Assembly (NCBI RefSeq): GCF_030684315.1
Contig: NC_081391.1
Coordinates: 13,865,342 to 13,929,341 of the forward strand
Reading direction: 5' to 3'
Origin: Stegostoma tigrinum
Lineage: Eukaryota
Length of the DNA stretch: 64,000 bases
The translations under genes and the position numbers were made by a program. Of the stretch, positions 442 to 62,017 are shown one piece after another. The notes beneath the pieces were generated by a model, which saw only the letters and a list, made by a program, of their open reading frames with translations, had not been told where the DNA came from and made no database searches. Numbering within the stretch: the first letter of the stretch is position 1; every line of letters begins with the position of its first letter.

Positions 442-1173
442 AAGCCAGAGAGGGATGAGTGGGGTAACAGCCTGCAGGCGATGCAGGTTGCCCTGGATCT
501 GGAGAAGAATGTGAACCAGAGTTTGCTGGATCTTCACCAACTTGCCACAGCCCAGACTGACCCTCATGTAAGCTTCACCACTTCATTCTCTTCACTGCTG
601 GTCACTCAGGGCAACACCTTCAATGGTTGGTCTTTTGTGGATTAGAAGTTGCCTGCTGTCTCAGACAAGTGCCATTTGGATCTCTTCAGATCCGTACCAA
701 TGCTTATAATCTGATCAGCTCAGCAATCAAGTAAAATGGGAATTTGGATTATAATCTAGTAGGAGTGATGAAGTGATATTGGCCACTGAATGCTCATCCA
801 GGATTATTGCAGTGGAATGATCACTATCCATCATAATCCAACACAGCATCACTTAACAAACTGCAAGAGCAGTTGAAATACATGGTCCTCACTGGCATAG
901 TCTCCAGGTGTTAGGTTTTCAGGGTAGTCTAGAGCTCATATGGCTGAGTGTTTTGCAGTAGGAAATCTGAGGTTGTCTTGGATAGCATTAATGTAGCAAG
1001 TTGTCATATTCTTGCAGCTGTGTGACTTCCTGGAGACTCACTATTTGGATGAGGAGGTGGAGATCATCAAGCAACTCGGGGACTACATCACCAACCTGAA
1101 GCGCCTGGGAGCCCCTGAGAATGGGATGGGAGAGTACCTGTTTGACAGGCTCTCCCTGGAGGACAGCAGTTAG
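442..1173 (+). CDS. Ferritin subunit copy A, 3' part only (exon 3 442-567, exon 4 1018-1173); exons 1-2 lie upstream of the window
   Basis: Exon 3 [42 protein letters not shown] and exon 4 [55 protein letters not shown] splice sites at the canonical vertebrate ferritin intron positions; AATAAA at 1302-1307. Confidence 0.93.
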
Positions 1174-2884
1174 TGTGGCCTGGAGTACTGTCTGCTTGGC
1201 CTGAATGCATTCCCCACTTCACCCTGGGCAATCTGTCTCCTTTCAGGGGGAAGGAATTTTGTAGCAAAGAATGTAATGGCTGTACCAGCTGAATGTAAAT
1301 GAATAAAATGATATATTGATATTGGTTTTTGTCCATCATTTTGAGACCATTGATACCTTTCTTTGGTCAATCAAGCTTTCCTACTGAAGTTCACCGCCCC
1401 CCCCCCCCCCCCCCCCCACACTGTGGACAGACTCTAGGCCTATGGGAGCCAGTTCAGGTTCAAATCGGGGCCTGTGACCTACCCTTGCAATAGCCATTGA
1501 CAGTTGGCCCCACTGACCAGTTCGCATTTAAGTTTTGTCAGTTGTCTGCTGCTCCTCCCAGGGCACCTTGGGGTTTTCTAAATAACTGTCTTGGTTTAAC
1601 TGCATTGCTCTCTTTTCCCAGAAGCAATTCAAAGTTTGTCTTCCAAGTGGCTTCATCAGTTTTTTTGCTGTCTTTCCTTCACCCATGGGCTCAGCAACTT
1701 TCTCTTCCAACGGCTTCTCTTCTCGACCCCACCCTGCCTGCCCCCACCACCTAAATAACTGGAAGTCTGCCAGCCCTGAGCTGGGGAAATTCGGCCCAAA
1801 CTTTCACAACAGTCACATTCCAGGGAATCGGCTCCAGATTCTCTGGGGCTACCTGATTGATAGTGGATGGTCTTGATCCCATAAAGACAAGGATTGGTGA
1901 CCTGGGGCTTGGATGATAGCCCACGGTTTAAAAATACTCCCATTTGGTTTATGCTTGCAGCTACAACTGGCTTCTTACTGTTCAAGGGTTTGTATGAAAA
2001 GCTGCTGCCTTGGTTCTTGGAACCTTTCCATGGGCTGAAGGCTCTTTTTTCTTTTGACATGCTTCAATTTGAACAAGTGAGGGAGCAGGGATTTCTGGGG
2101 AAGGTGGGGACTGTCTCCTTCAGACAAGATGCCTGGACATGCTGACATTCCTATACAGCTGTTTCCTTGATCATTCAAGGCGTCAGATCATGGCTGAGGG
2201 AGGGGGATGAACAGAGACAGCCCAGAGTTTGTCTTGAGTTTTGTCGAAGTGCACACGGCAGCCTTAGGAAGAGTGTGGGTCATTGAGGTACTGAATATAT
2301 TTGTTCCATCACAATAATCCTTTTTATTTTGCCCAGTCTCAATCCTTGGTGATAGAATCCCTACTCTCCTGGAAGGGGCCGTTTGACCCACGTAGTATCA
2401 ACCTTCTGCCCAGCATCCTGCTCAGTCACACCACAGTCCTTTGACCCTGTGTTTCCCCTGGCCCCTCTCCCCTCAAACCTGTGCCCTCTAGTTTTGGACT
2501 TCCCTACCCTGTCGCAGCATGCTTTTTATATACAGTCATTCTTGAGTGTGCCAATGGCAAGGCTACATCTCGTGCTCAGCAGCTGGTTATTACAGATGGT
2601 CTGGTGTAGCAGACTCTGGAATGATGCTGCTGAGGAGGGGCTTCTGGGATTTTAATTCACAGAAAACCCTGAGGCCTACTGTGTATACGAGTCACTCAGC
2701 ACATTTAGCATCTTGCTTTTCAAACTGGGATTCATGAGACCCTAAGTCCCAGGGATCACAGCAGATTCAGAACAGATCTAAAGGACATCGGTTGCCTGTA
2801 TTAGACGATCCAAAAGCATACTATTCTGTTGCTGCGCAGAAATAGGAAAATGTTCATATCAACCAAATCTGGGCATTTTAGAAA

Positions 2885-4361
2885 GATGAGATTAGCCAAT
2901 GTTGTTTCCCCTGTTCAGAGGATCGCAAATGTGGTTCCCCTGTTCAAGAAGGGGAGTAGAGACAACCCTGGTAATTGTAGACCAGTGAGCCTTACCTCAG
3001 TTGTTGGTAAAGTGTTGGAAAAGGTTATAAGGGATAGGATTTATAATCATCTAGAAAAGAATAAATTGATTTTGGGATAGTCAGCACGGTTTTATGAGGG
3101 GAAAGTCATGCTCATGCCTCACAAACCTTATTGAGTTATTTCAGAAGGTGACTAAACAGGTAGATGAGAGTAAACTGGTTGATGTGGTGTATATGGATTT
3201 GAGCAAGGCATTCGATAAGCTTCTAAGGTTCCCCACAAGAGGCTATTGTACAAAATGTGGAGGAATGGGATTGTGGAAGATATAGCAGTTTGGATCAGAA
3301 ATTGGCTTGCTGAAAGAAGACAGAGGGCGGTAGTCGATGGGAAATGTTCATCCTGGAGACCAGTTACTAGTGGTGTACTGCAAGGGTCGGTGTTGGGTCC
3401 ACTGCTGTTTCTCATTTTTAATAGGTGACCTGGATGAGGGCGTAGAAGGATGGGTTAGTAAATTTGCAGACAACACGAAGGTCGGTGGAGTTGTGGATAG
3501 TGACGAAGGATGCTGTAGGTCGCAGAGAGACATAGATAAGCTGCGGAGCTGGGCTGAGAGGTGGCAAATGGAGTTTAATGCAGACGAGTGTGAGGTGATG
3601 CACTTTGGTAGGAGTAACCGGAAGGCAAAGTACAGGGCTAATGGTAAGATTCTTGGTAGTTTAGATGAGCAGAGAGATGTCGGTGTCCATGTACACATAT
3701 CCTTGAAAGTTGCCACCCAGGTTGACAGGGCGGTTAAGAAGGCATACAAAGTTTTAGCTTTTATTAATAGAGGGATCGAGTTCCGGAACCAAGAGGTTAT
3801 GGCGAAGCTGTACAAAACTCTGGTGCGGCCGCAATTGGAGTATTGTGTACAGTTCTGGTCACCCCATTATAAGAAGGATGTAGAAGCTTTGGAAAGGGTG
3901 CAGAGGAGATTTACTAGGATGTTGCCTGGTATGGTGGGAAGGTCTTAGGAGGAAATGCTGAGGGACTTGAGGCTGTTTTCATTAGAGGGAAGAAGTTTGC
4001 GAGGTGACTTAATTGAAACATATAAAATAATCAGAGGGTTAGATAGCGTGGATAGGGAGAGCCTTTTTCCTAGGATGGTGACAGCGAGCACGAGGGGGCA
4101 TAGCTTCAAATGGACGGGTGAAAGATATAGGACAGATGTCAGAGATAGTTTCTTTACTTGGAGAGTAGTGAGGGAATGGAACGCTTTGCCTGCAACAGTA
4201 GTAGATTCACCAACTTTAGGTACATTTAAGTCGTCATTGGACAAGCATATGGACGTACATGGAATAGTGTAGGTTAGATGGGCTTCATATCGGTATGACA
4301 GGTCGGCACAACATCGAGGGCCGAAGTGCCTGTACTGTGCTGTAATCTTCTATGTTCTATG
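2885..4361 (+). mobile_element. CR1 LINE, 5'-truncated (RT domain to 3' UTR), frameshifted
   Basis: ORF fragments [54 protein letters not shown]; ends in TTCTATGTTCTAT microsatellite tail. Confidence 0.92.
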
Positions 4362-4539
4362 GCTCCAACAGCAACGTTCAAAAGTTATGACGAATAATCC
4401 TTCAGATTAACAATCCAACAGAATTCTGCAAATCTGTGATGACTGTGGCTTCACGCACAACCTCAGATAGAAAAGCGAAGGTTTAGAGTATATTTTATTG
4501 TCATTTTCTGGCAAATACATTTACAGAATGTGCACTTGT

Positions 4540-4735
4540 AGAGGAGGTCAAAGATCATTCAGCAATTCCATCATCGACCAGTTGTCAACCGTGATTCGTT
4601 TCTGGATCCAGTTCCCATCCTGCACTGATTGGACGTGGCAACTGATCAATTGATTAACAAGAGTGATTGGCCATCACTGATGATGTCATTTCCTGCTTCA
4701 TAAAAAGAGGGGCTGCCCCTGGAGTATAAATAGAG
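4540..4735 (+). promoter_or_regulatory. Conserved ferritin promoter, copy B (DR1-like, two inverted CCAAT, TGATGTCA/TTCC, TATA)
   Basis: AGGTCAAAGATCA at 4545-4557, GATTGG twice, TATAAA at 4725-4730; block is near-identical upstream of 7 copies. Confidence 0.75.
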
Positions 4736-61400: not shown

Positions 61401-61634
61401 TGTGGCACAGAAATAGGAAAATGTTCAGATCAACCAAATCGAGCCATTTTTCAAAGAGCTCCAACACCAATGTTCAAAAATTATGACGACTAATCCCTCA
61501 GAATAACAATCTGACAGAATTCTGCAAATCTGTGATGAATGTGTCTTAACGCACAACTTCAGATACAGACGTGAAGTTTTAGAGCATACTTTATTCTCAT
61601 TTTCAGGGAGATGTCCTCCCAGAATTTGCCCTTG

Positions 61635-61830
61635 TGCGGGAGGTCAAAGATCATTTCAGCAATTTCATCATCAACCACTCATCAATTCTGATTGGTTTTT
61701 TGACCCGATTCCCATCCTGCACTGATTGGATGTGGCAGCTGATCAATTGATTAACAAGAGTGATTGGCCATCACTGATGATCTCATTTCCTGCTTCATAA
61801 AATGAGTGTTGGCTCCTCGGGTATAAATAG
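61635..61830 (+). promoter_or_regulatory. Conserved ferritin promoter, copy I
   Basis: AGGTCAAAGATCA at 61641-61653; TATAAA at 61822-61827. Confidence 0.72.
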
Positions 61831-61915
61831 AGTCCCAGGGCAGGGATGTTTATTGTTGTTCTTAACTTTGTTATTTTTGTGGTGTGGAAACTAAGGCAAG
61901 CTTTTCCTTTATATG

Positions 61916-62017
61916 ATGGCCTCCCAGATCAGTCAGAACTATCACCAGGATTGTGAAGCTGCTGTCAACAAGCAGATCAATGTGGAGCTCACTGCCTCCT
62001 ATCTCTATCAGTCTTTG
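61916..62017 (+). CDS. Ferritin subunit copy I, exon 1 only (F-type copy; the rest lies beyond the window)
   Basis: [34 protein letters not shown] followed by GTGAGT; TATAAA at 61822. Confidence 0.92.

Follow-up and report, generated by a model that had tools for sequence, protein, structure and literature searches.

A 170-unit array of predicted ferroxidase-poor ferritin genes in the zebra shark lacks detectable iron-responsive elements and has a ferroxidase-intact counterpart on the same chromosome

To our knowledge, fish have been described with ferritin H (heavy) and M (middle) chains only. Teleost M has been treated as the L (light) chain orthologue, and iron-responsive elements (IREs), which are typical of vertebrate ferritins, are also present in the salmon M genes (PMC4117605). 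For iron to be loaded efficiently, one chain must oxidise it and another must nucleate it (PMC11719527). Both irons have Glu62 among their ligands, and the combined E62K+H65G substitution abolishes activity (PMC6929972); human L nucleates iron at E60/E61/E64, with E140 (PMC12022971). In sharks, the expansion of ferritin copies is already known: a preprint reports 155 'FTL' and 179 'FTH1' copies in the Greenland shark, which are clustered, ancient and shared with the white shark (10.1101/2024.09.09.611499). Here we describe a window of 64,000 nucleotides from the zebra shark, Stegostoma tigrinum (C50:13,865,342-13,929,341; C50 is contig NC_081391.1, 26,869,179 bp), which is part of a large tandem ferritin array, array A, and compare it with a second array on the same chromosome, array B. 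What is new here is a pair of sister-like arrays, both without IREs, whose active sites are opposite, together with the successive appearance of K62 and then E141 and homogenisation at the level of exons; subscription journals aside, we found no literature that describes the K62 subfamily, the absence of IREs or the promoter common to both arrays, and PMC5568229 and PMC13007054 contribute nothing further. We hold with moderate confidence that array A encodes an IRE-less subunit, predicted to be ferroxidase-poor, that likely co-assembles with the array B product as a bulk iron store, probably in the ovary or in oocytes.

A sequence-only reading of the window had proposed at least nine tandem ferritin copies, amplified for dosage. 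Exon searches recovered nine (copies A-I; Table 1), all on the forward strand and with the standard four-exon ferritin layout; all introns of copies B, F and G are of the GT-AG type. Amplification for dosage is supported. The true scale is far larger: in the 1.42 Mb from 12.987 to 14.404 Mb of C50, covered without gaps, array A comprises 170 units, all on the forward strand with a mean spacing of 8.5 kb. Four exons are present in 164 units, and 112 units are intact, 94 of them with GT donors only; the intact set holds 96 distinct coding sequences (CDS) and 82 distinct proteins. RefSeq labels these copies 'middle' or 'heavy subunit-like'. Four exons, PF00210 and a four-helix bundle with an E helix place the product among the vertebrate cytosolic ferritins, and an ordinary, complete fold is predicted for it (predicted local distance difference test, pLDDT, 88.5; template modelling score, TM, 0.94 to frog M).

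The active site sets this protein apart. In H numbering, which we verified on macaque H, all seven exon 2s of the window have Lys at position 62 (EK at 61-62 in copies B-G, VK in copy H), all eight exon 4s of copies A-H read YLDEEV..I (E141, I144), and the C-terminus FDRLSL is present, all as the earlier reading had it. E27 is kept in eight of eight first exons and H65 in every copy save H, where it is Pro; the three-fold channel residues C130/D131/E134 are likewise retained in the window copies, save where the start of exon 4 in copy H is damaged. The same picture holds across the array. E27, K62, E64, E107, H118, C130, D131, E134, E141 and I144 each occur in 112/112 intact units, H65 in 108/112, and Y34 and E61 in 107/112 each, while EE at positions 61-62 occurs in none of the 169 exon 2s found. 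The loss of the bridging Glu62 is therefore borne out: array A departs from the H/M residue set (E27, Y34, E62, H65, E107, Q141) by K62 and E141 in all 112 intact units, the two residues by which tetrapod L is recognised. Because Lys replaces the bridging Glu62, we predict that the array A product has no fast ferroxidase activity. Loss of E62 alone would suffice to abolish activity, and in mammalian L, K62 forms a salt bridge with E107.

Other L-like traits in the earlier reading fared less well. Xenopus oocyte L chains share the E27/K62/H65/E107/E141 combination, so the mosaic of retained and lost site residues does not set array A apart. FDRLSL is no L marker, since 28 of the 33 exon 4s in the sample of the ferroxidase-intact array B read LFDRLTL or LFDRLSL. 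A nucleation role of the L type is weakened because position 60 is Gln (102) or Arg (10), and never Glu, in the 112 intact units; position 57 is Asp or His. Three of the four human L nucleation residues (E61, E64, E140) are present. The retention of E27, Y34, E61, H65 and E107 alongside a fixed E141 could also point to a rebuilt site, in which the carboxylate of Glu141 in carpet sharks would partly replace Glu62 and sustain slow ferroxidation, and frog M mutants with Gln replaced by Glu at the equivalent of position 141 fold normally (PDB 3KA6, 3KA9); a literature search for Q137E found nothing. We regard this as quite improbable, given that Lys62 places a positive charge at the bridging position, that other sharks keep K62 together with Q141, and that tetrapod L with K62/E141, though usually without E27 and H65, is reported to be inactive (PMC11719527).

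The array A protein is under constraint, with a mean ratio of nonsynonymous to synonymous divergence (pN/pS) of 0.29 over 1500 pairs among the 96 distinct CDS. Between copies, four-fold sites differ by 3-9%, as against 17-25% in neighbouring introns, and the promoter (11%) and 3' untranslated region (7%) are likewise closer than the introns. Homogenisation confined to exons, or selection on the mRNA, may have shaped this pattern. There are also higher-order duplications of 30-126 kb at 97-99.8% identity, of which one 126-kb tandem duplicate, 99.78% identical, may be false, in which case about 15 units would be spurious. This duplicate, and the third of the units that are broken, would fit an array that is a neutral outcome of unequal crossing-over or inflated by the assembly. 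Such an origin is nevertheless very improbable and largely refuted by the 96 distinct intact CDS, the pN/pS value, exons far more similar than introns, multiple copies in other sharks and the spliced transcripts described below.

Array B, which the earlier reading missed along with the IRE loss and the previously reported expansion, lies 5.6 Mb from array A. Its exon-4 pattern, with Q141/M144, has at least 207 exact matches genome-wide; among the 100 matches listed, 99 are on C50, from 19.99 Mb onwards, and the array extends to 21.56 Mb. In a sample of about 240 kb, E62 and H65 are each kept in 28/28, E107 in 35/35, Q141 in 33/33 and E27 in 25/29 cases. Because a run of N occupies its left edge (L039:1-6628, C50:19.98 Mb), array B may be incomplete. 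A B-type fragment on another contig (L014, C17:12,130,031-12,130,234), with exon 3 joined to exon 4 without an intron, is a processed copy.

Despite their opposite sites, the two arrays have their upstream regions in common. With the true 5' ends unmapped, no IRE-like hairpin was found upstream of the first exons in 167 regions of array A or 29 of array B, nor an IRE between the promoter block and ATG of copy B; an Rfam search of the window found none either, while recovering both control IREs. Across the genome, 82 scored candidates and a pattern search yielded only two IREs, one in FTH1, a single H-type gene on C20 distinct from array B, and one in a compact, single M gene at C50:21.61 Mb. 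The promoter block of copy B recurs in most array A units and resembles the array B promoters: both share a GATTG..TGATGTCATT.CCTG..GGAGTATAAATA block, which is absent from the single-copy genes. The A-B promoter alignment has a mean score of 32.3, versus 20.9 +/- 2.8 for shuffled sequences, whereas the regions upstream of the M gene with an IRE and of FTH1 score 20.4 and 22.7 against array A and do not align. The shared motif is missing from 18 of the 112 intact array A units; the copy D class also has a GC donor. One promoter element, TTCCTGCTTCA, resembles the 5' arm of an IRE, but we rejected it as such because the CAGUG loop is missing and the TATA box lies downstream of it. CCAAT-type boxes occur in oocyte promoters of fish and frogs.

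Both arrays also appear in sequencing data. In run X6, 38,386 of 714,730 contigs fall on copy F (85% threshold) and 35,029 of 714,730 on a B copy (90% threshold). None of the listed runs is recorded as RNA; as these contigs cluster on exons with GT-AG splice joints and skip the introns, unlike those of run X7, which cover introns, we take X6 to be RNA; the exon-centred, joined contigs likewise indicate that both arrays are spliced in one library, whose tissue and type are not on record. In run X4, from another species, a single 614-nt contig covers all four exons; matches in runs X1 and X2 were mostly to repeats, and these two runs were set aside.

K62 is present in 30/30 A-type shark proteins from five orders, a subfamily that includes Heptranchias, Heterodontus, Carcharodon, Cetorhinus, Scyliorhinus, Mustelus and four carpet shark genera. 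E141/I144 occurs only in the carpet sharks; the other K62 sharks have Q141 with Ala, Val or Thr. Our tree comprises 46 of 59 candidate rows; gene Z (see below), teleost M and human sequences were left out, as were the rows A_Chiloscyllium_pl, K_Mustelus2, B_Cetorhinus, B_Scyliorhinus, B_Pristiophorus_KLS, L_Rhineura, L_Bombina, L_Pleurodeles, L_Elephantulus, F_Pyxi, F_Pelodytes, H_Equus and H_lgn. In this tree, the carpet shark A genes nest within the K62/Q141 shark genes (99/98; 100/99 without six active-site columns). Because of this nesting, the simplest view is that E141 was gained later, in convergence with tetrapod L. The earlier reading had left the choice between an independently evolved L-like ferritin and an early L orthologue; for E141/I144 the former is favoured, while the evidence neither establishes an early L orthologue nor rules one out.

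The phylogeny and synteny checks that it proposed bear on this second question. With all columns, the A and K62 shark rows (A/K) join tetrapod L at 88/74, and not array B. Array A might then be the shark orthologue of tetrapod FTL, K62 having arisen once in the jawed-vertebrate ancestor, with Xenopus 'oocyte L' and the shark gene keeping an ancestral E27/H65 state and a germ-line role. The site residues, identical to those of Xenopus oocyte L, would fit, and so would the linkage. Array A is flanked by a cytohesin gene and a DRAM/TMEM150-type gene, and C50 also carries RUVBL2, adjoining a cystine-knot hormone beta gene, as well as BAX. RUVBL2, BAX, a cytohesin and a cystine-knot hormone beta gene also flank human FTL, so that C50 is presumably the FTL/M linkage group, which does not tell which of its genes is the L orthologue. 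The genes are on one chromosome but not adjacent, RUVBL2 being 4.1 Mb and BAX 12 Mb from array A, and all M-type genes share this chromosome. The grouping with tetrapod L dissolves once the six active-site columns are dropped, E141 is missing from the non-carpet sharks, array A has a promoter in common with array B and no IRE, and, as a weak point, no K62-type protein is among the ray or chimaera matches in the listed top 120. We therefore consider FTL orthology rather unlikely; it concerns the origin of array A, and the function would be the same as in our preferred explanation. The flank scans covered 150 of 876 and 115 of 201 candidate frames; long frames to the left of array A are CA-type simple repeats. 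No glycogen synthase gene on C50 that might correspond to GYS1, a neighbour of tetrapod FTL with BAX and RUVBL2, is among the matches listed, where two such genes appear, at C20:18.98-19.04 Mb and C33:46.0 Mb, one of them about 0.9 Mb from FTH1.

Our preferred explanation, a ferroxidase-poor subunit paired with array B, would then run as follows. Early in sharks, an M-type gene that had a CCAAT/TATA promoter but no IRE would have duplicated to give B (E62) and A (K62), and both would have been amplified and exon-homogenised for dosage. As translation without an IRE would not wait for high cytosolic iron, cages could precede iron loading. The B subunits would oxidise Fe(II), with the A subunits as a stabilising or diluting L-like partner, possibly through a K62-E107 salt bridge; the A subunits would still admit iron (C130/D131/E134) and retain some residues of the nucleation patch (E61, E64, E140). 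Carpet sharks would later have gained E141/I144, converging further on tetrapod L.

Several points weigh against this explanation. Co-assembly and the activity of array A are predictions, and the tissue is suggested by likeness to the Greenland shark, in which the largest ferritin cluster is ovary-specific in expression (10.1101/2024.09.09.611499), that is, by another species whose 'FTL' set is probably the counterpart of array A. Expression cannot be ranked from the contigs of run X6, nor does a single run place both products in the same cell. The described null mutant is the double E62K/H65G, while array A keeps H65, E27, E107 and Y34; E60 of the L nucleation site is missing; and 58 of the 170 units are broken or partial. 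In the tree, finally, the all-column link of A/K, weak as it is, leads to tetrapod L, and a grouping of A+K+B is at best not rejected (approximately unbiased test, p-AU 0.143).

Array A might also form cages of its own, as a bulk egg protein, an antioxidant or a sink for single metals (Zn/Cu/Fe2+) bound through E27/H65, with no need of array B. Such cages would account for the retention of E27 (112/112) and H65 (108/112) despite a broken di-iron site, for contig numbers comparable to those of B in run X6, and for the complete predicted fold. We judge them unlikely, as the three-fold channel residues are invariant, promoter and co-transcription are common with an intact partner, and exon homogenisation can keep residues without selection on each. 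Returning to paired arrays, we put forward tentatively a broader proposal: that sharks independently evolved a second H/L-like pair from sister genes that shed IRE control, one of them losing its ferroxidase centre and each amplified more than 150-fold and exon-homogenised, whose mixed cages would load iron into large yolky eggs, with carpet sharks converging further on the tetrapod L site.

Table 1. Ferritin features of the window (positions of the 64,000-nucleotide stretch)
Feature	Position	Strand	Exons	Remarks
Copy A	442..1173	+	3 (442-567), 4 (1018-1173)	5' part beyond window edge
Promoter block, copy B	4626..4732	+		two TGATTGG (inverted CCAAT), TGATGTCATTTCCTG, TATAAA at 4725
Copy B	4818..9026	+	4818-4919, 6997-7143, 8281-8406, 8871-9026	intact; K62 codon 7069-7071 (AAG)
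Copy C	14449..19021	+	14449-14550, 17728-17874, 18292-18417, 18866-19021	open frame; GC donor after exon 2
Copy D	20611..25343	+	20611-20712, 23151-23297, 24628-24753, 25188-25343	open frame; GC donor after exon 3; Y34N; no shared promoter block
Copy E	27551..32413	+	27551-27652, 30011-30157, 31671-31795, 32258-32413	pseudogene; frame broken by 1-bp deletion in exon 3
Copy F	35947..41097	+	35947-36048, 38829-38975, 40352-40477, 40942-41097	intact
Copy G	45512..49675	+	45512-45613, 47377-47523, 48930-49055, 49520-49675	intact
Copy H	54119..58262	+		pseudogene; stops in exons 2 and 3; H65P; exon-4 start damaged
Copy I	61916..62017	+	1	remainder beyond window

Several repeat units of the window contain fragments resembling long interspersed nuclear elements (2918-4340, 36539-37315, 62515-63259). 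Elsewhere on C50 we noted three further ferritin genes. Gene Z, a single gene (C50:21,659,128-21,670,217, +; L202-L203), has K27, L61, L62, N65, Q107 and N141 and is predicted from these residues to be a second, fully ferroxidase-dead type; because bullfrog 'L' (1RCI, 1RCD, 1RCC) is among the best PDB matches of its exons 4 and 1, it may represent an old shark-frog lineage. Gene Y (C50:21,591,488-21,601,909, +; L182 and L007) has intact site residues, an N-terminus extended by 56 residues rich in Arg, and CpG-rich sequence upstream, and is possibly an intron-containing mitochondrial ferritin; mammalian FTMT is intronless. Gene X (C50:21,580,354-21,570,729, -; L180-L181) is a divergent single ferritin with K61, E62, Q65, S130/N131 and Y118, for which an IRE was not found. 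Among database proteins, some shark- or reptile-like ferritins are filed as Salmonella, Aeromonas, panda or nematode (P0253, P0256, P0304, P0119, P0142), probably through contamination.

A conserved, highly amplified, ferroxidase-defective shark subunit would either repeat the evolution of the L chain in nature or represent its oldest form, and the series from K62/Q141 to K62/E141 is open to assay step by step. The contrast of about 380 IRE-less genes with two IRE genes points to a route of maternal iron supply that has so far gone unstudied. Automatic names such as 'heavy' or 'middle subunit', and readings of shark ferritin copy number in terms of longevity, mask two different proteins.

The closest described systems resemble array A in different respects. 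The clusters of the Greenland and great white sharks likewise comprise two ferritin types, and 155 and 179 copies are near the 170 and at least 207 of the zebra shark. However, the available text of the preprint labels them by likeness to human FTL/FTH1, without active-site, IRE, promoter or phylogenetic analysis (10.1101/2024.09.09.611499), whereas the intact array of the zebra shark is not FTH1 and the A-type proteins of the white shark have Q141; a second preprint on the Greenland shark contains no passage on ferritin. Frog H'/M and teleost M provide the best structural match to array A (70% identity) and a near-identical C-terminal loop, but M chains keep E62 and Q141, and the salmon M genes have IREs (PMC4117605). 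Mammalian L (FTL) shares K62, E141, an aliphatic residue at 144, a Leu-lined four-fold end and the linkage group, but has lost E27 and H65, carries the nucleation residues E57/E60 and an IRE, and is encoded by one functional gene. Lastly, Xenopus oocyte L (FRIL_XENLA, Q6P4N0) has the same E27, Y34, K62, H65, E107 and E141, with I144 in X. tropicalis, at 62% identity, but it also has E57/E60, belongs firmly within the tetrapod L clade (100/99) and is encoded by a few genes, as against the 170 units of array A.

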